DNA of 59,022 bases from a virus (lineage: Duplodnaviria; Caudoviricetes), in the IMG/VR virus record IMGVR_UViG_3300000517_000182, positions 1-59,022 of that record; one strand, given 5' to 3'. Below the pieces are notes generated by a model that saw nothing but the letters and a program-made list of their open reading frames with translations, was not told the origin of the DNA and searched no databases. Positions 5,017 through 51,195 of the stretch are shown here, one piece after another (the first letter of the stretch is position 1; the number at the start of each line of letters is the position of its first letter). Made by a program: the position numbers and the translations under genes.

Positions 5017-6164
5017 GATTGAGAGAGATATTTCAGCCCCAAGACTTTGAGTTTGTTCTCACAGAAGCAGAAGCGCGAATACAACACGCTGAAGATATTG
5101 TGTTCTGGGAAGGCTCAAAAGGCGCTGTGCGTGCTCTAAATGCACTTCGCAGTTTAGAAGGCAAAGGACACGAAAAAGTCACAATCAAGTGGGACGGTTC
5201 GCCTGCAATAATATTTGGTAGAAACGAAGACGGTGAGTTTATTCTTACAGACAAGTCAGGATGGGGCGCCAAAGGCTATGACGGCAAGGTAAAGTCAGGA
5301 GAAGCACTGGAAGACATGCTGCTGTCACGAAGCGGAGGTAAGAACAGAGACAACCCCGATTATCAAGCCTTCGCTGCTAAAATGAAAAGTATATTTGACG
5401 AATACGAGCGTGCTGTGCCCGAAGACTTCAGAGGATTTTTCAAAGGCGATTTGTTATACTTCTCAACTCCGCCTGTAAAAAACAACAACTATGTATTCAA
5501 ACCAAATGTAGTAGAGTATGCTGTAGATGTAGATTCTGACCTCGGCAAGAGAATAGGCCAATCTAAAACAGGGGTTGTAATACATAGACAAATGGATCTA
5601 GAAGGCAACGAATCTGAAGTGCAAGATGCTGACGTATTCCAAGGTTCAGAAGTTCTAGTTGTTCCGCCTGTGTCAGTAGAAAAGCCTGCGGAAATAGATA
5701 ACGAGCAAACAGACCAACTCGCACAAGTAATTAAACAGAACGCAGCAGGCCTAGATGAACTGTTGAACAAAGACACGCTCACAGAAAACAAGATGAAAGA
5801 CTTTCCTAATATGCTGTATGCATACACAAACTCCAAGGTAGACACAGGTCTAGAAAACCTAGGAGAAGATTTTGTTGCGTGGCTAGAAAGACAGCCTAGA
5901 ATATCTGAACGCAAAAAAGAAAATGTCAAAAACTACATACAGGAACACGAAAAAGCATTTGCTGCACTATGGCGTGTTGTTAGTTCTATTATGACTGTAA
6001 AGAATCGAATAATAGATCAGTTCGATACACAAAGCACTTCCGTCAAACAGAGCATGGCAGGCGAAAAAGGTGGTGAAGGTTATGTGTTGGCACACCCAGA
6101 AGGCGATATTAAACTCGTGCCGAGACAGACATTTTCGAGAATAAATCGAGCAGTGGAGAGATAG
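5013..6164 (+). CDS. ATP-dependent ligase-like (RNA ligase fold, DUF6267-like) protein
   Basis: TIKWDG (motif I KxDG), EGYV (motif IV), IKLV (motif V). Confidence 0.6.
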   Translation: MRLREIFQPQDFEFVLTEAEARIQHAEDIVFWEGSKGAVRALNALRSLEGKGHEKVTIKWDGSPAIIFGRNEDGEFILTDKSGWGAKGYDGKVKSGEALEDMLLSRSGGKNRDNPDYQAFAAKMKSIFDEYERAVPEDFRGFFKGDLLYFSTPPVKNNNYVFKPNVVEYAVDVDSDLGKRIGQSKTGVVIHRQMDLEGNESEVQDADVFQGSEVLVVPPVSVEKPAEIDNEQTDQLAQVIKQNAAGLDELLNKDTLTENKMKDFPNMLYAYTNSKVDTGLENLGEDFVAWLERQPRISERKKENVKNYIQEHEKAFAALWRVVSSIMTVKNRIIDQFDTQSTSVKQSMAGEKGGEGYVLAHPEGDIKLVPRQTFSRINRAVER

Positions 6165-15868: not shown

Positions 15869-16840
15869 ATGCTATTCGAACCACAGATATCAAGAAAGCC
15901 AGATTTGTATCCTTGGACCAAAAAGTTCATTGATGCTATATGGGCAGGCTTTTGGACCCCAGACGAGTTTAACTTTCGTTCAGACTATTCGCAGTTTAAA
16001 CAGGAACTTACACAGGAAGAGCAGGAAGTTATTGTAAGAGCTCTATCAGCAATTGGGCAAATAGAAGTTGCTGTTAAAAGTTTCTGGGCAAATGTAGGCA
16101 CGCATCTACCGCATCCTTCTATAAATGATCTTGGATACGCAATGGCCAACTCTGAAGTCATTCACAATATGGCCTATGAGAAGTTGCTTGATGTTCTGCA
16201 TCTTACTCACGTGTTCGAAGAAAACCTAAATGAAGAGGTTATTCGCGGCAGAGTAAATTACCTACGCAAATACAACGAAAAAGTTTATGAAGATGATAAA
16301 AAGCAGTTCATTTATTCAATTATTCTCTTTACATTGTTCGTAGAAAATGTTAGTCTATTTTCACAGTTTTACATAATTCTGCACTTCAACAGAAACAAAG
16401 CTGTGCTAAAAGATTGTGCCCAACAGGTACAATACACAAGAAACGAAGAAATGTTACACGCTCAGGTAGGAATACAGTTAATTAACACTTTGAGAGAAGA
16501 GTATCCAGAGATGTTTGATGCGGAGCTCGAAAGCCGTATCCAAGAAGAAATCCAAGACAGCCTCGCAGCTGAAAGTCGTGTCATTGACTGGATGGTAGGC
16601 GATTACGCTGTAGAAGGTCTTAATGCAGAAATTCTAAAAGCATTTGTTGCAAAGAGAATGAAAGAATCAATGGAACAGATCGGCTTTGATCATTCCATGA
16701 TCGAAATCAACAAAGAACTTGCTGATGAGACTTTTTGGTTCGACGAAGCTCTTCTTGGTGCTACTATGACTGATTTCTTCCAGAAGCGTCCGGTAGAATA
16801 CTCCAAGGGACAAGGAATTGCAGCAGACGAACTATTTTAA
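15869..16840 (+). CDS. nrdB: Ribonucleotide reductase class I beta subunit
   Basis: FWTPDE, EVIH..Y and EEMLH di-metal motifs; DFFQKRPVEY C-terminus. Confidence 0.93.
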   Translation: MLFEPQISRKPDLYPWTKKFIDAIWAGFWTPDEFNFRSDYSQFKQELTQEEQEVIVRALSAIGQIEVAVKSFWANVGTHLPHPSINDLGYAMANSEVIHNMAYEKLLDVLHLTHVFEENLNEEVIRGRVNYLRKYNEKVYEDDKKQFIYSIILFTLFVENVSLFSQFYIILHFNRNKAVLKDCAQQVQYTRNEEMLHAQVGIQLINTLREEYPEMFDAELESRIQEEIQDSLAAESRVIDWMVGDYAVEGLNAEILKAFVAKRMKESMEQIGFDHSMIEINKELADETFWFDEALLGATMTDFFQKRPVEYSKGQGIAADELF

Positions 16841-16862
16841 AACAGAAACAAAGGGGATAAGA

Positions 16863-18542
16863 ATGAGTTTTGATTGGTTGAACCAAGACTCTCGTACTTT
16901 TTTGTCGAGAGGCTACCTAGATGAAGGTCAGAGTGCAGAAGACAGAATTAGAGAAATCGCAGACACTGCTGAACGATTTTTAGATGTAGAAGGATTTGCA
17001 GACAAGTTCTATGATTATATGGGGAGAGGATTCTATTCGCTTTCTTCTCCTGTATGGTCAAACTTTGGCAACAACAAAGGCCTGCCAATCTCCTGTAACG
17101 GTGTTTATGTAGGAGATGAGATTTCCAAGATCATGGGCAAGGCATCTGAAGTTGCAATGCAGACCAAGCACGGTGCTGGCACTTCTGGTTACTTTGGTAA
17201 CATTCGTCCTCGTGGTTCTGAAATCAAAACAGGTGGTGTAGCAGACGGTCCTGTGCATTTTATGAACATCTTTGAAAGTGTCACAGATGTAATTTCACAG
17301 GGCTCTGTTCGCCGCGGCTCTTTTGCTGCATACACAGACATTGAACATCCTGATGTAGAAGAATTCCTTGAGATTAGAGAAGTTGGTCATTCTATTCAAA
17401 ATATGAGCCTTGGTCTTTGCATCTCTGACGCCTGGATGGAGGCAATGATTGAAGAAGGTGAGCGTGTCAAGGCAGGCGAGCTGGCTTCTACTGATGCTAA
17501 AAAACTCCAGCTTTGGGCCAGAGTAATGCGCAAACGCAAGGAAAGCGGTTATCCCTATCTATTCTTTACTGACAATGTCAATAACGGGAAGCCCAGAGTC
17601 TTAAAAGACAAGAACAGAAAAGTTTATGCATCAAACCTCTGCTCTGAGATTTGCTTGCCATCCGCAGACGACGAAAGTTTTGTTTGTAATTTGGCATCAA
17701 TGAATGTTCTTACCTACGACGAGTGGAAGAACACAGACGCAGTTGAAACACTGACATACTTTCTCGATGCTGTTATGACAGATTATATCAACAAGACAGC
17801 AGAGATTCCTTTCATGGAAAGTTCATACAACTTTGCCAAGCGTTGGAGAGCTCTTGGAATCGGACAGTTAGGCTGGCATTCCTATCTGCAATCCAAAATG
17901 ATTCCTTTTGAATCATTCCAAGCAGCAAGTCTCGCAGCAGAGATTTCCAAGTTTATGGACGAACGTTCTCACAAGGCAAGTGTAGATATGGCAGCTCGCT
18001 ATGGAGAGCCAGACGGAATGATTGGTTATGGTGAGAGAAACCTTACTCGTCTTGCTATCGCACCAACAACTTCAAGTTCTTTCATTCTTGGACAGGTATC
18101 ACCTTCCATTGAACCTCTGCGTTCTAACTACTTCACAAAGGATCTAGCAAAGGGTTCTTTTACCTATAAGAATCCTTACCTCGAAAAGGTATTAGAATCC
18201 TATGGCAAGAACGATGAAGAAACCTGGATGAGCATCCTTACTAATAATGGTTCTGTTCAGCATTTAGATTTCTTAGGTGAGACAGAGAAAGCAGTGTTCG
18301 CTACTTTTGACGAGATTACACCTATCACAATTGTTCAGCAGGCAGCGGCAAGGCAGCGTCACATAGATCAAAGTCAAAGTCTTAATCTTATGATTCCGCC
18401 TGACGCTCCTGTTAAGGATGTGAATGCTCTTATTATTGAGGGATGGAGACTGGGAATAAAAACATTCTATTATCAACGTTCTTCCAATCCTGCTCAGGAA
18501 CTTGTGAGAGATATTATGAGTTGTGAGGCTTGTGAAGCATGA
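16863..18542 (+). CDS. nrdA: Ribonucleotide reductase class I alpha subunit (short, no obvious ATP cone)
   Basis: PISC, SNLCSEI, VCNL, IAPT, KTFYY and C-terminal CEAC. Confidence 0.93.
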   Translation: MSFDWLNQDSRTFLSRGYLDEGQSAEDRIREIADTAERFLDVEGFADKFYDYMGRGFYSLSSPVWSNFGNNKGLPISCNGVYVGDEISKIMGKASEVAMQTKHGAGTSGYFGNIRPRGSEIKTGGVADGPVHFMNIFESVTDVISQGSVRRGSFAAYTDIEHPDVEEFLEIREVGHSIQNMSLGLCISDAWMEAMIEEGERVKAGELASTDAKKLQLWARVMRKRKESGYPYLFFTDNVNNGKPRVLKDKNRKVYASNLCSEICLPSADDESFVCNLASMNVLTYDEWKNTDAVETLTYFLDAVMTDYINKTAEIPFMESSYNFAKRWRALGIGQLGWHSYLQSKMIPFESFQAASLAAEISKFMDERSHKASVDMAARYGEPDGMIGYGERNLTRLAIAPTTSSSFILGQVSPSIEPLRSNYFTKDLAKGSFTYKNPYLEKVLESYGKNDEETWMSILTNNGSVQHLDFLGETEKAVFATFDEITPITIVQQAAARQRHIDQSQSLNLMIPPDAPVKDVNALIIEGWRLGIKTFYYQRSSNPAQELVRDIMSCEACEA

Positions 18543-22387: not shown

Positions 22388-22576
22388 ATGAGTGAGAATG
22401 TAGAGTTTGTTTTAGTAAGACGCGATTCCGACGACAAAGTAGAAATTGTCAAAAAGGAGTCATTTGATTTAACTGGTTATAGTTTTTTTCGTTACTATGA
22501 AACAGGTAACAACACGCTTGAAGAATGGGTAGAAACTGATCGGTTAGAATTTTACAAGAATAAAGTAGAGAAATAA
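22388..22576 (+). CDS. Phage hypothetical protein
   Basis: AAGGAG SD. Confidence 0.55.
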   Translation: MSENVEFVLVRRDSDDKVEIVKKESFDLTGYSFFRYYETGNNTLEEWVETDRLEFYKNKVEK

Positions 22577-22591
22577 ATAGAAAGAATTCAA

Positions 22592-22845
22592 TGAAGCGAT
22601 GGTAAGATGTTTCGGACGCGGGTTCGACTCCCGCCGCCTACACCACTTATTTCTATGTGGGCGTCATGGTTTCGACGGGGCAGACGAGTTATCGTGGAGA
22701 ATCGGCAATGTGGAAGCCGTTAGGATTGGGAGTTCCCGATCTAAGAAGCAAACTAAAATAAATGCAACAGAAGAAGCATTTGCTCTAGCCGCTTGAGGCT
22801 AGATGGGGTTTTGCTAGTCCTTCCTTATTACCCAAAGGACTGGCA
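22592..22845 (+). ncRNA. ssrA: Circularly permuted (two-piece) tmRNA; tag (A)ATEEAFALAA
   Basis: T arm GCGGG-TTCGACT-CCCGC and CGCCTAC-ACCA (ends 22645) precede the 5' strand GTGGGCG (22657), giving G3:U70; resume GCA at 22764, stop 22796; outer ends approximate. Confidence 0.92.
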
Positions 22846-22918
22846 CCTTCCAAAAAAGATTGACACGCCTGTCACTCATAATTATACTATACGTTAATTT
22901 GTAGCAAAAGGCTCTATT

Positions 22919-29757: not shown

Positions 29758-31656
29758 ATGAGCAAAGTAATCGGTATTGACTTAGGTACCACAAATTCCT
29801 GTCTCTCAATCGTAGAGAACAAAGATCCCCGCATAATTGAAAACGCAGAAGGTGGTAGAACCACACCATCCGTTGTTGCGTACACAGACGACGACATTCT
29901 TATAGGAAATAGTGCAAAGCGTCAGAGTGTGACAAATCCAGAAAACACTGTGTTCGCAGTCAAGCGACTGATTGGACGCAAGTTCAAGGAAGATGCTGTT
30001 CAGAAGGATATTGAACAGATGCCCTATAAGATTGTTGAAGCAGACAACGGAGATGCCTGGGTAGAAGCTAACGGTGAGAAGAAAGCACCTCAACAGGTAT
30101 CTGCGGAAATACTACGCAAAATAAAGTCGTATGCGGAGGACTTCTTGGGAGAGTCAGTCTCACAGGCAGTTATTACCGTGCCCGCTTACTTCAACGATTC
30201 ACAGCGTCAGGCAACCAAAGATGCCGGCAAAATTGCTGGCCTAGAGGTCCTCCGCATCATAAACGAACCCACTGCTGCTGCCCTTGCTTACGGTGTTGAT
30301 CAAGATGACAAAGCAGACAAGAAGGTTGCTGTTTATGATTTGGGCGGCGGCACTTTTGACATCTCAATCATTGAGATTGCGGATGTAGACGGAGAGAAGC
30401 AGATTGAAGTGCTTTCCACAAACGGTGATACATTCCTCGGCGGTGAAGACTTTGACAATGCTCTTATCTCTGAAATGATCTCAGAGTTCAAGAAAGAGCA
30501 AGGTGTTGATCTGTCAGGAGATAAACTCGCACTTCAGCGTCTTAAGGAGGCGGCAGAGAAGGCCAAGATTGAATTGAGTTCTAATTCTCAGACAGATATC
30601 AATCTTCCTTACATCACTGCTGACGCCACAGGGCCTAAACATCTTAATCTTAAGATGACTCGTGCGAAGTTTGAAAGCCTTGTAGAGGACTTAATTACAC
30701 GTTCAATTGAACCTTGCAAGATCGCAGTCAAGGACGCAGGTCTCAAGCCCACAGAAGTTGATGAAGTCATTCTCGTAGGTGGCCAGACTCGTATGCCTAA
30801 AGTTCAGGAAGCAGTAGAAAAATTCTTTGGTAAAGCACCTCGAAAGAATGTGAATCCTGACGAGGCAGTTGCCGCAGGTGCTGCGCTGCAGGGTTCCGTT
30901 CTCGCAGGTGATAACTCAGACATCCTATTGCTTGATGTTACACCTCTTTCGCTTGGTATTGAAACCATGGGCGGTGTAATGACAAAACTGGTAGAAAAGA
31001 ACACTACTATTCCTACCAAGGCATCGCAGGTGTTCTCAACCGCAGAAGACAACCAAAGTGCTGTAACAATTCAAGTAGCACAGGGCGAAAGAGAGTTTGT
31101 GCGTGACAACAAGGTGCTTGGCACATTCAATCTCGAAGGCATTGAGCCTGCTCCTAGAGGTGTTCCGCAGATTGAAGTCACCTTTGACATTGACGCAAAC
31201 GGTATTCTCAATGTGTCTGCAAAAGACAAAAATACTGGCAAGGAACACTCAATTAAAATCGAAGCAGGCGGCGGCTTGAGTGACGAAGAGATTGAGCGCA
31301 TGGTCCAAGACGCTGAAACAAACGCAGAGGAAGACAAGAAGAAGCGTGAACTTGTTGATGCTCGCAACTCTGCCGAAGCGCAGATTGCTTCCGCAGACAG
31401 AGAGTTTGAAGAAGCCAAAGACTCCTTGACAGACGAGCAGACGGAAAGCTATACTACTGCTAAGAGCGAACTTGAAGAAGCCTGTAAGGGCGAAGACAAG
31501 GACGCTATACAGGAGAAAACTACTGCGTTTATGACGGCTGCATCTGTGATTTATCAAGCCAAGCAGCAACAGAATTCGGCAGATGCTGGTTCTTCGGAAG
31601 AGCAATCAGCCGATGACTCAGTTGTTGATGCAGACTTCGAAGAAGTCGATCAATAA
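29758..31656 (+). CDS. dnaK: Chaperone DnaK (Hsp70)
   Basis: [17 protein letters not shown] and DLGGGTFD motifs; full length. Confidence 0.97.
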
Positions 31657-42520: not shown

Positions 42521-43147
42521 ATGATCAAACTGCAAGGCAAACTTCCTCGAAAAATAATCGTAGCCTGCTCAGGCGGTGTAGATTCAATGGCGGTGCTTGA
42601 TTTTCTATCGCGTCGCCATAATGTAGAGGCCGTTTATTTTGATCACGGCACCAAGCATGGTCGTCGTGCTGGAATTTTTCTAACGGAGTATTGTCGACAG
42701 AGAGACATTGTTTTGTGGTACGGAGTGCTCAAGGAAGCAAAACCACAGGGTGTTAGTCAAGAAGAACACTGGCGCAACGAGCGCTACAAAAAACTTGATG
42801 AAATTGCAGATCAGCGCGGCGCCCCTGTTGTAACCTGTCATCACCTCAACGACTGCGTAGAAACTTGGCTTTGGAGCTCACTACACGGCGAAGGCAAGAT
42901 CATCCCCTATCGCAGGCGAGATGTTATTAGACCCTTTCGTCTTGTAGAAAAACGCAATCTTAGACTTTGGGCAGAAATGAATTCTGTGCCCTGGGTAGAG
43001 GATGATAGCAACCAAGATACCTGCTATACTAGAAACTATATTAGACATGAATTGATGCCTCATGCTCTACGAGTAAATCCAGGGCTGAAAAAGGTCATTA
43101 AGAAAAAGGTGCTTAACGATGACTATCAAGCATTCTCCTGTGTTTGA
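42521..43147 (+). CDS. tilS: tRNA(Ile)-lysidine synthetase, catalytic domain only
   Basis: SGGVDS PP-loop, HHLNDCVET, IRP, EDDSN and RNYIRH motifs. Confidence 0.85.
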   Translation: MIKLQGKLPRKIIVACSGGVDSMAVLDFLSRRHNVEAVYFDHGTKHGRRAGIFLTEYCRQRDIVLWYGVLKEAKPQGVSQEEHWRNERYKKLDEIADQRGAPVVTCHHLNDCVETWLWSSLHGEGKIIPYRRRDVIRPFRLVEKRNLRLWAEMNSVPWVEDDSNQDTCYTRNYIRHELMPHALRVNPGLKKVIKKKVLNDDYQAFSCV

Positions 43148-44449: not shown

Positions 44450-44860
44450 ATGAAAGCAGAACAACCAGCGGAAGGAATTAGCAAAAAGGCATCATACTCA
44501 GATGCTGTGTGGTATGAAGTAGATTGTCAATGCGGCAGTCCTGATCACTATCATTCTATTTGGATTGAAAGAGATTCAGAAACAAAACTGGTAACGGTAG
44601 AAATCACAACAGAGGCAACTACTGACTTTTGGACGCAGGATGTTCCAGAAAGAGTGAATAATCTTGATTCACCTTTTTTAAATTCGATTTGGCAAACCGT
44701 GGCATACACTGTGAATGAAACAGTTCGCAGAGCACGTCTTATTTTTCGAATTCTGTTTAAAGGTTATGCGAAATACGAATCAACTGTCATACTGACAAAG
44801 CAGCAGGCTTACAATTACAGCAAAGCGATTGAAAAGGCTGCGAAAGAACTAGACTCATAA
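44450..44860 (+). CDS. Phage hypothetical protein
   Basis: CxC..H motif; coupled ORF. Confidence 0.65.
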   Translation: MKAEQPAEGISKKASYSDAVWYEVDCQCGSPDHYHSIWIERDSETKLVTVEITTEATTDFWTQDVPERVNNLDSPFLNSIWQTVAYTVNETVRRARLIFRILFKGYAKYESTVILTKQQAYNYSKAIEKAAKELDS

Positions 44861-44865
44861 ATAGG

Positions 44866-45175
44866 CACTTTTAGGCTACACAAGGACTCTGTTGGTCGAG
44901 AAGTCGATCCGCTACGATTCAGCCGAGGTACGGCCCGTTGCTGAAGGATGTAGTGCGTCCACTCCGCGCGATATCTCCTAAAAACCATGCAAGTGGAACG
45001 AGTGCATGGATAGCGTGAAAACGCGATGTCAACGCAGGTACGGGAAAGGTTAGAGCCCATGGAGATGCGTTAAAAATACCTGCTTCCAAAGTCTCGGCTG
45101 GATGCAACTCACATGAAGCCGTTTTGGTGGAACCTGCACAAGGTTCCGTCTGACCTAATACAATCTACATGAAAC
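44866..45175 (+). ncRNA. Candidate large structured non-coding RNA, family not identified
   Basis: Non-coding GC-richer gap after TAAATA with many helices (see findings); ends approximate. Confidence 0.6.
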
Positions 45176-45282
45176 TTGGATATATACATCAAATAAAAAA
45201 CGAGTCTGCAAAGACGAGTGGTTTCGTGTCAACGAAACTGAAACTGTTTGACTTATATCACAAACTGTATTAAAATAAGCAA

Positions 45283-45429
45283 ATGAATATACCAAATTAC
45301 ATTAGGCTATCTCGAAATCACATTGGCATTGATTGGAAATTGTTTACAAAATCTCCGGAATACATGCGAGAACAAGCAAAGACAAAACAACTAGTAAGGT
45401 ATTTGAAGAATGAAAGCAACAATAGGTAA
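45283..45429 (+). CDS. Small hypothetical protein (48 aa)
   Basis: ATG 6 nt after TTGACT-N17-TAAAAT. Confidence 0.45.
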   Translation: MNIPNYIRLSRNHIGIDWKLFTKSPEYMREQAKTKQLVRYLKNESNNR

Positions 45430-50177: not shown

Positions 50178-50258
50178 GCTGTTGTAGCTTAACGGTAGAG
50201 CCCTGCATTGTAGCACATAGTGAGCAGGATGGTCTTGGTTCGAATCCAAGCGGCAGCA
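50178..50258 (+). tRNA. tRNA-like gene with about 10 extra nt in the anticodon loop (Thr-TGT or Tyr-GTA register)
   Basis: Normal acceptor, D and T arms; CCTGC/GCAGG stem encloses 17 nt. Confidence 0.65.
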
Positions 50259-51044: not shown

Positions 51045-51116
51045 GCCTAGATGGCGGAATGTCTACGCAAACGACTTTAAATTGTTTATATGCAGGTTCG
51101 AATCCTGTCCTAGGCT
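51045..51116 (+). tRNA. tRNA-like gene with TTA (ochre suppressor-type) anticodon
   Basis: AACGA-CT-TTA-AA-TTGTT arm and good T arm; no D-loop GG; followed by CAA, not CCA. Confidence 0.6.
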
Positions 51117-51120
51117 CAAA

Positions 51121-51195
51121 GGTGATGTAGTTCAGCGGTAGAACAGCAGATTCATGATCTGCGAGTCGCAGGTTCGAATCCTGCCATCACCTCCA
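51121..51195 (+). tRNA. tRNA with CAT anticodon (Met or Ile2)
   Basis: Cloverleaf with CCA; atypical G37 and U73. Confidence 0.85.

Follow-up and report, generated by a model that had tools for sequence, protein, structure and literature searches.

Several described RNAs resemble, each in part, the phage RNA reported here. The RNAs of the GOLLD, ROOL, and HEARO class are large, intricately folded, pseudoknotted, carried by phages, and found by comparative analysis. T-box riboswitches are structured RNAs that hold a codon-like sequence and a conserved A in an unpaired loop, and the displayed sequence varies between members on a constant scaffold; IS110 bridge RNAs, omega-RNAs, and tracrRNA-type RNAs likewise combine a constant scaffold with short variable guide-like segments. 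In the translational bypassing of T4 gene 60, two identical short sequences lie about 50 nt apart with a hairpin between them, and the matched take-off and landing codons are kept the same by selection.

An RNA that partly resembles these was found at 44884-45175 on the + strand of a stretch of 59,022 nucleotides (hereafter the window), a 59-kb IMG/VR viral contig. The family of this RNA is widespread and occurs as a single copy per genome in uncultivated jumbo myophages that are distant relatives of T4. The RNA differed from the GOLLD, ROOL, and HEARO class in its smaller size of about 290 nt and in giving no match to these Rfam families, which are not known to us to have paired heptamers. 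Unlike a T-box, it gave no T-box match in Rfam at E ≤ 10, its displayed sequence was present twice, it was not located upstream of aminoacyl-tRNA synthetase or amino-acid genes, and in most members it appeared to be terminated as a free-standing RNA; the likeness of its codon-like heptamer to a T-box specifier appears to be a mere resemblance. In contrast to the guide-bearing scaffold RNAs, its two variable segments of about 7 nt each were identical and would not address two different sites. A recombinase or nuclease gene was not consistently adjacent to it either (Pfam and PHROG scans of the 10 ORFs around the window element gave none), and an IS110-type bridge RNA or other guide RNA was ruled out because no cognate gene of either kind lay beside all members. 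Translational bypassing was rejected because no ORF crosses the element: on the + strand, the ORF scan gave none of at least 30 aa across 44861-45168, and the region is constrained as an RNA structure.

Locus and family members

The CheckV completeness of the window was 17%, which for a 59-kb contig implies a jumbo phage. All long ORFs of the window lay on the + strand, and the RNA occupied a gap bounded by a 136-aa ORF ending at 44860 and a 232-aa ORF starting at 45410. The G+C content was 0.49-0.54 in the gap versus 0.35-0.41 in the flanks, in agreement with a first-pass annotation of this DNA that had described the gap as GC-richer, and the complementary segments listed in that annotation were each found in place. 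When the window sequence was folded alone and compared with shuffles, the minimum free energy of the element was significant on neither strand (z-scores: + strand, -0.78; - strand, -1.95). The reality of the RNA therefore rests on the comparison with its relatives, and thermodynamics by itself would have discarded it.

The Rfam scan of the whole window detected ten tRNAs besides a permuted (two-piece type) tmRNA gene at 22553-22887 (Rfam match, 22585-22796; tag peptide, ATEEAFALAA), all away from the RNA locus. In the tRNA array of the window, ARAGORN predicted a suppressor-type tRNA whose TTA anticodon would decode the stop codon TAA (51045-51117) and a tRNA with the four-base anticodon gtag (50178-50258); these two tRNAs hint at stop-codon read-through or frameshift suppression in the phage. 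The window also encoded a DnaK/Hsp70 homologue that was 65% identical to bacterial-type DnaK of database records (29758-31656), the large subunit of ribonucleotide reductase (16818-18542), and, 2 kb upstream of the RNA, a PP-loop (TilS/QueC-like) ATPase (42521-43147).

None of the 4227 models of Rfam 15 matched the RNA locus when the whole window was scanned at gathering thresholds, and a scan of 44700-45400 at E ≤ 10 with lax filters gave 0 matches. A majority-type member (L088:4300-4850) gave at E ≤ 10 only three chance-level matches, to miRNA, snoRNA, and lncRNA models, which were far under the thresholds. The models of RNase P RNA, tmRNA, SRP RNA, and 6S RNA did not match the RNA locus at E ≤ 10. 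The first-pass annotation, which had set aside RNase P, tmRNA, SRP, and group I and II motifs, was consistent with the Rfam results at E ≤ 10, and the Rfam search that it had suggested matched no family, so that the novelty of the RNA stood. A blastn search (word size 11) of 50,697 GenBank phage records gave no match for either the window-type or the majority-type RNA. Full-text literature searches found no description of the RNA, and a term search of a 2026 preprint on coevolutionary mining gave nothing relevant. A study by Fremin, Bhatt and Kyrpides (2023; PMC10690425) reports 10,006 unnamed structured RNAs predicted from IMG/VR, and the jumbo-phage RNA family may be among these unnamed candidates.

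By nhmmer, a truncated copy of the RNA was found first in L006/L007, in a gene context unlike that of the window, and a search with two conserved words gave full-length copies in L027 and L030. The pattern TGGAGATGN{3,20}CCTGCTTCC was uninformative; it matched 94 stretches, among which nhmmer matched only the known L027 and L030. A pattern of the 3' RNA matched at least 120 viral contigs, and 120 of 120 were confirmed by an nhmmer profile built from three sequences. This profile matched 126 of the 242 loci scanned, and these included 106 full-length copies, 101 distinct sequences, and 67 representatives with less than 88% identity. Further members were obtained through the central motif (at least 46 loci) and through variant tails (at least 35 loci), and the family as a whole numbered more than 200 viral contigs of IMG/VR, which is a lower bound. 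R1, a covariance model of the RNA core with 208 positions, detected a single copy in every one of 100 sources and scored the window copy at 179.9 bits. In the cultured relative PA5oct, the syntenic 660-bp gap gave R1 noise only (best, 10.2 bits).

Searches of bacterial genome collections gave 48 pattern matches, 4 of which matched R1, on contigs of two MAGs. These contigs, L284/L290 of one MAG (335 kb and 153 kb) and L247/L275 of another, carried the RNA together with phage-like arrays of about 20 tRNAs. They are probably binned jumbo-phage DNA, and the MAG copies therefore provide no evidence of a host-encoded version of the RNA.

The closest relative of the window, L002/L025, was syntenic, with flanking proteins 58% and 67% identical to those of the window. 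In this 194-kb fragment (56% complete), R1 detected no RNA at the syntenic site or elsewhere, and the site of the window's RNA was occupied by three small ORFs of 115, 55, and 66 aa (L025 3404-4171). The lack of the RNA in the closest relative indicated that it is dispensable or replaceable in that lineage, and the RNA site appears to be a hotspot for cargo swapping. Many contigs (L006, L007, L032, L043, L049, L052, L066, L085, L122, L123, and L126) broke off within the RNA gene, and often close to P3, the hairpin of variable length; these ends are likely assembly breaks at a hypervariable insert flanked by sequence common to co-occurring phages.

Core fold and twin heptamers

Covariation showed a conserved core of about 210 nt, in which two pseudoknots, PK1 (6 bp) and PK2 (3 bp), lock five helices together. 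In A3, an alignment of 21 diverse members with short P3 hairpins, 94.9% of the cells at 32 proposed pairs were paired versus 26.8-42.1% when the 3' partner was slid by 1-3 columns, and 98 double-sided changes were counted (28±4 in shuffles), a number that 0 of 500 shuffles attained. The R1 alignment of 94 distinct sequences gave similar values for 32 pairs: 95.5% of the cells were paired versus 27.5-42.0% after sliding, and 433 double-sided changes were counted versus 117±17 in shuffles, again with 0 of 500 reaching the observed number. The 94-row alignment (A4) was fitted to the nested structure, and PK1 and PK2, although outside the model, still held.

PK1 was formed by ATCTCC (44973-44978) and GGAGAT (45061-45066); it was 90.4% paired in 94 sequences and had compensatory changes in 6 of 6 pairs. 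The P2 hairpin CCATGCA/TGCATGG (44985-91/45003-09) was 100% paired, with compensatory changes in 3 of 3 scored pairs, and its loop sequence GGAACGA was invariant in the alignments A2 and A3. P3 is a variable hairpin, represented by GCGT-GAAA-ACGC (45013-45024) in the window and by lengths from about 10 nt to about 100 nt in the relatives; its two basal pairs were both compensatory and 100% paired, with five pair types. The 5' strand of PK2, AAC (45031-45033), lies directly 5' of P4 and pairs with GTT (45049-51) of the P5 loop, with compensatory changes in 3 of 3 pairs and 99.2% of the cells paired. P4, GCAGGT/ACCTGC (45034-39/45078-83), encloses P5 (GGG/CCC, 45042-44/45056-58) and the 3' strands of PK2 and PK1. 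The P7 hairpin GGAACCT-GCACA-AGGTTCC, followed by the conserved GTCTGAC (45129-45154), had 8 pairs and was 99.1% paired, and its 3' strand was kept even in loci found through the central motif alone. P4, P5, and P7 were mostly invariant, and their changes were G-U wobbles compatible with the + strand alone; because on the - strand the G-U pairs of P4 and P7 would turn into C-A mismatches, the RNA strand was assigned as +.

The abundant covariation among homologues, together with the lack of an Rfam match, bore out the first-pass proposal of a large, highly structured phage noncoding RNA of unrecognised family. Eight of the ten helices in that proposal were supported, including the ATCTCC/GGAGAT pseudoknot with its six compensated pairs, CCATGCA/TGCATGG, GCGT-GAAA-ACGC, GCAGGT/ACCTGC, GGG/CCC, and GGAACCT/AGGTTCC. 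Two were not: CGTTG/CAACG clashed with PK2, whose covarying pairs take its AAC, and the GTCC of GGATGT/GCGTCC appeared to be paired instead with GGAC at 44884-87. Judged from these comparisons between relatives, the window RNA is a real RNA gene of a new family that is absent from Rfam and from the GenBank phages searched.

The GGAC/GTCC pair (44884-87/44957-60), which by eye alternated with GAAC/GTTC in the relatives, belongs to a window-type 5' domain (44884-44960) that also holds the hairpin GGTCGAGAAGTCGATC and the strand ATTCAGCCGAGGT. The nhmmer matches in window-type relatives spanned model positions 2-302, and the 5' domain was shown to be a subfamily-specific addition to the conserved core. 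The long-range helix ATTCAGCCGAGGT/GTCTCGGCTGGAT (44917-29/45091-103) joins this domain to the 3' side. It had been described with 10 bp, was present, and extended to 13 bp including G-U pairs; it recurred in L027 (12 bp), L030 (10 bp), and L141 (9 bp). In most members, the same 3' strand (GTCTCGG) paired instead with a downstream TTGAGAT or TCGAGAT, and this alternative helix had compensated variants such as AGTCTTGG/TCAAGATT. Between the subfamilies, the partner strand has in effect shifted from the 5' side to the 3' side.

The two ACATGAA copies noticed in the first pass were located at 45111-45117 and 45167-45173. The predicted fold was shown to hold both heptamers unpaired: copy 1 (ACTC-ACATGAA-G, 45107-45118) lies in the loop of the short hairpin P6, and copy 2 (ATCT-ACATGAA-AC, 45163-45175) lies in a single-stranded 3' tail at the end of the conserved RNA. 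The copies covaried as identical direct repeats in only 12 variants, most of them 1-2 bases from ACATGAA, so that the independent events are fewer than the numbers of sequences imply; in part of the data set, moreover, the two search motifs were set by the patterns used to find the members. Across 159 loci (132 distinct), the longest string common to the P4-to-P7 segment and the tail was always the heptamer motif, and it was 7 nt or longer in 130 of the 132 distinct sequences. Among the loci picked through the central motif, a choice independent of the heptamer, GCATAAA, ACATAAT, ACATGAT, ACGTGAA, GTATGAA, ACAGAAA, ACAGGAA, GCATGAA, ACATGAG, and ACATAAA were found in both copies, as was TCATCAA in one divergent member. 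The flanks of the heptamers, ACTC in copy 1 and ATCT in copy 2, were constant except in this divergent member. In a prediction test with selection on a changed copy 2 only, 232 loci were fetched, 35 of which were family members (23 distinct), and the matching heptamer was present in copy 1 of 23 of the 23 distinct members.

Mutual information gave the equivalent copy-1 position as the best partner of copy-2 positions 5 and 7, the two most variable, and indicated no internal pairing partner of the heptamers. The reverse complement of the heptamer did not occur at any consistent place within ±2.5 kb, and TTCATGT was not enriched in the window (8 observed versus 13.3 expected). We know of no other RNA class in which two unpaired heptamers are kept identical while drifting between phages.

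Transcription unit and gene neighbourhood

A hairpin with a T-rich tail followed copy 2 in 91 of 129 distinct members, and 71 of the 91 started 0-9 nt away; in a control with coding sequence, such terminator hairpins were found in 12 of 111. These hairpins, together with gene neighbours that differ between subfamilies, suggested that the RNA is an independent, free-standing transcription unit with predicted ends. Among sequencing runs, no RNA run contained the stretch, and only two DNA runs contained small shares of it. No terminator-like site was found after the window's own copy, where two weaker hairpins were followed by a predicted sigma-70-like promoter, TTGACT-17-TAAAAT (45248-45276, + strand), located downstream of the RNA and not part of it. 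A hairpin, GTTTCG-TGTCAA-CGAAAC, preceded this promoter, with the same layout by eye in L027 and L030, and the promoter probably serves the next genes.

A second conserved element was observed 3' of the RNA (45196-45247). In window-type loci, including L027 and L030, it consisted of ACGAAG...GAGTTGTTTCG-hairpin and directly preceded a TTGACA-N17-TATACT-like promoter, and in majority-type loci it was represented by ACGAAGTGTAT..GTTTGAGCG; this element may be a phage-specific regulatory site. Upstream of the RNA, the TAAATA (44858) noted in the first pass is at most a putative late promoter of the T4 consensus type. An upstream AGGCA element was not supported as a general promoter, since a WTWNAGGCAM-type motif occurred 5 times in the window versus 5.5 expected.

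The majority gene order was late sigma gp55, gp47, gp46, a 71-aa ORF, a 148-aa GIY-YIG-like ORF, the RNA, a 206-aa ORF, and the baseplate hub, and this block was seen in 57-88 of 127 loci. The GIY-YIG-like ORF was directly upstream of the RNA in 88 of the 127 loci, and the 206-aa protein was downstream in 57. The closest cultured relatives of gp46 were those of the jumbo phages PA5oct (51%), Phosso (47%), and Atu_ph07 (44%). The gene downstream of the window's RNA encodes a 232-aa phrog_11543 protein, unrelated to the 206-aa protein, and the GIY-YIG-like protein was absent from 5 window-type contigs. This absence indicated that the adjacency of the GIY-YIG-like ORF reflects synteny and not a functional requirement, and a general functional link between the RNA and this neighbour was ruled out.

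The same observations bear on whether the RNA is a cis-acting leader or riboswitch for the downstream genes. Its orientation is that of the flanking genes, and after P4 the sequence TTCC could pair with either GGAA of the P2 loop or the P7 5' strand, so that alternative folds would be possible. However, such a leader would have to act on the phrog_11543 gene in the window and on the unrelated 206-aa gene in other loci, the RNA is usually followed by a terminator and, in the window, by a separate promoter-like site, and a size of about 290 nt with two pseudoknots is far above that of a typical aptamer; we therefore consider a leader function very unlikely.

If the RNA were a ribozyme that processes itself, or what is left of a mobile intron-like element, this would account for the double-pseudoknotted core, for the homing-endonuclease-like character of the GIY-YIG ORF found directly upstream in most of the loci, and for the varying position of the RNA relative to neighbour genes in different phages. 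The RNA gave no match to Rfam ribozymes or introns at E ≤ 10, however, and no split gene was found: the 136-aa ORF upstream is complete, and the L025 homologue of this ORF ends alike without the element. In addition, the GIY-YIG-like protein is missing from the window-type contigs. A ribozyme or intron-like remnant is, on this evidence, the most improbable of the readings considered here, and a group I or group II intron was rejected on the grounds of the missing Rfam match and the common end of the 136-aa ORF (44860) and its L025 homologue.

Possible function of the heptamers

The direct-repeat identity of the heptamers is not explicable by intramolecular pairing, and no reverse complement was found at a consistent place within ±2.5 kb. 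The most likely reading is therefore that the two copies recognise one and the same partner in trans. We favour, with somewhat better than even confidence, the reading that 44884-45175 (+) encodes a stable trans-acting RNA of about 290 nt, in which the folded core would be a scaffold showing two copies of a programmable heptamer. The heptamers would be the specifiers of this RNA and would base-pair with two copies of one complementary sequence, on one partner or on two molecules, and the partner would be encoded away from the immediate neighbourhood of the RNA. Among the roles offered in the first-pass annotation, a scaffold is the nearest to this reading, that is, a core displaying two identical heptamers; nothing specific speaks for the other roles offered, a ribozyme or a replication primer.

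The main alternative to base pairing is a co-evolving dimeric protein. The heptamers would then be sites for a homodimeric sequence-specific RNA-binding protein, and the RNA would be a protein sponge, decoy, or assembly scaffold. One site in a hairpin loop and one single-stranded site about 50 nt apart form a layout that recalls binding by dimeric regulators such as CsrA, and the failure to find a complementary sequence within ±2.5 kb is in line with a protein partner. On the other hand, 12 variants changed in step would need a shift in the specificity of the protein each time, and no conserved candidate accompanies the RNA in both gene contexts, the GIY-YIG-like neighbour being missing in the window type. 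We regard recognition by such a protein as distinctly unlikely.

A specific version of the trans-specifier reading is that the heptamers capture the 7-nt anticodon loops of tRNAs, so that the RNA would be a T-box-like binder acting in trans. It could sponge up particular tRNAs, shield them from anticodon nucleases, sense them, or act as their chaperone. We hold this speculative minority hypothesis to be unlikely. tRNAs have U at position 33 and a purine at position 37, and every heptamer variant has a reverse complement of the form N-U-[3 nt]-R-N: position 6 of the heptamer was A in 125 of 125 aligned sequences and would pair with the universal U33, and position 2 was C or T and would pair with purine 37. 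The anticodons implied in this way are few (CAU, UAU, CAC, UCU, CCU, and GAU). Position 2 was C in 124 of the 125, however, which implies G37, and tRNAs for A-starting codons normally carry A37.

The tRNAs of the family contigs gave a mixed result. The tRNA(CAT) of the window (51121-51195), with the loop TTCATGA, complements 6 of 7 heptamer bases, and none of the other 9 window tRNAs does so. This loop is unusual in having G at position 37; most other tRNAs of the array have A37. In window-type phages, a tRNA array lies about 3-4.5 kb downstream of the RNA and on its strand. The RNA of the window is at 44884-45175 and the tRNAs start from 48315, and in L027 the RNA is at 5606-5912 and the tRNAs are at 168-1174 on the strand of the RNA. 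Against this, the loop of tRNA(CAT) was CTCATAA on the L027 contig, giving 4 bp only, and TTCATAC on the L275/L093-type contig, giving 5 bp. The 335-kb contig with an RNA copy yielded no CAT tRNA, and 32 of 35 larger family contigs scanned, all of which are fragments, had no tRNA at all. Any CAT tRNA guarantees 4 bp, so that the match in the window rests on two extra bases.

If tRNA capture were to apply, the RNA could be pictured as a double clamp, in which two identical codon-plus-flank heptamers on a rigid, double-pseudoknotted scaffold would form kissing contacts with the anticodon loops of a single tRNA species, bound in two copies. The anticodon held by this improbable clamp would be CAU in most phages and UAU, CAC, UCU, CCU, or GAU in others. 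Were the clamp true, a phage could, during infection, sequester a chosen tRNA, protect it from anticodon nucleases, or hand it over, and the RNA would amount to a counterpart of the T-box specifier that works in trans and needs no protein.

For the broader reading of a trans-acting scaffold with two specifiers, the covariation of the heptamers provides a direct experimental handle on the partner. The family is large, and its fold, with the two pseudoknots included, is exceptionally well supported; the core of about 210 nt with its insertion-tolerant variable hairpin lends itself well to structure determination. Environmental viromes are rich in jumbo phages related to PA5oct and Atu_ph07, and to our knowledge almost nothing is known about the noncoding RNAs of these phages. 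Covarying identical heptamers are the signature of a programmable recognition element, and the RNA may therefore bring to light a new means by which phages address nucleic acid, be it of the host or of a phage.
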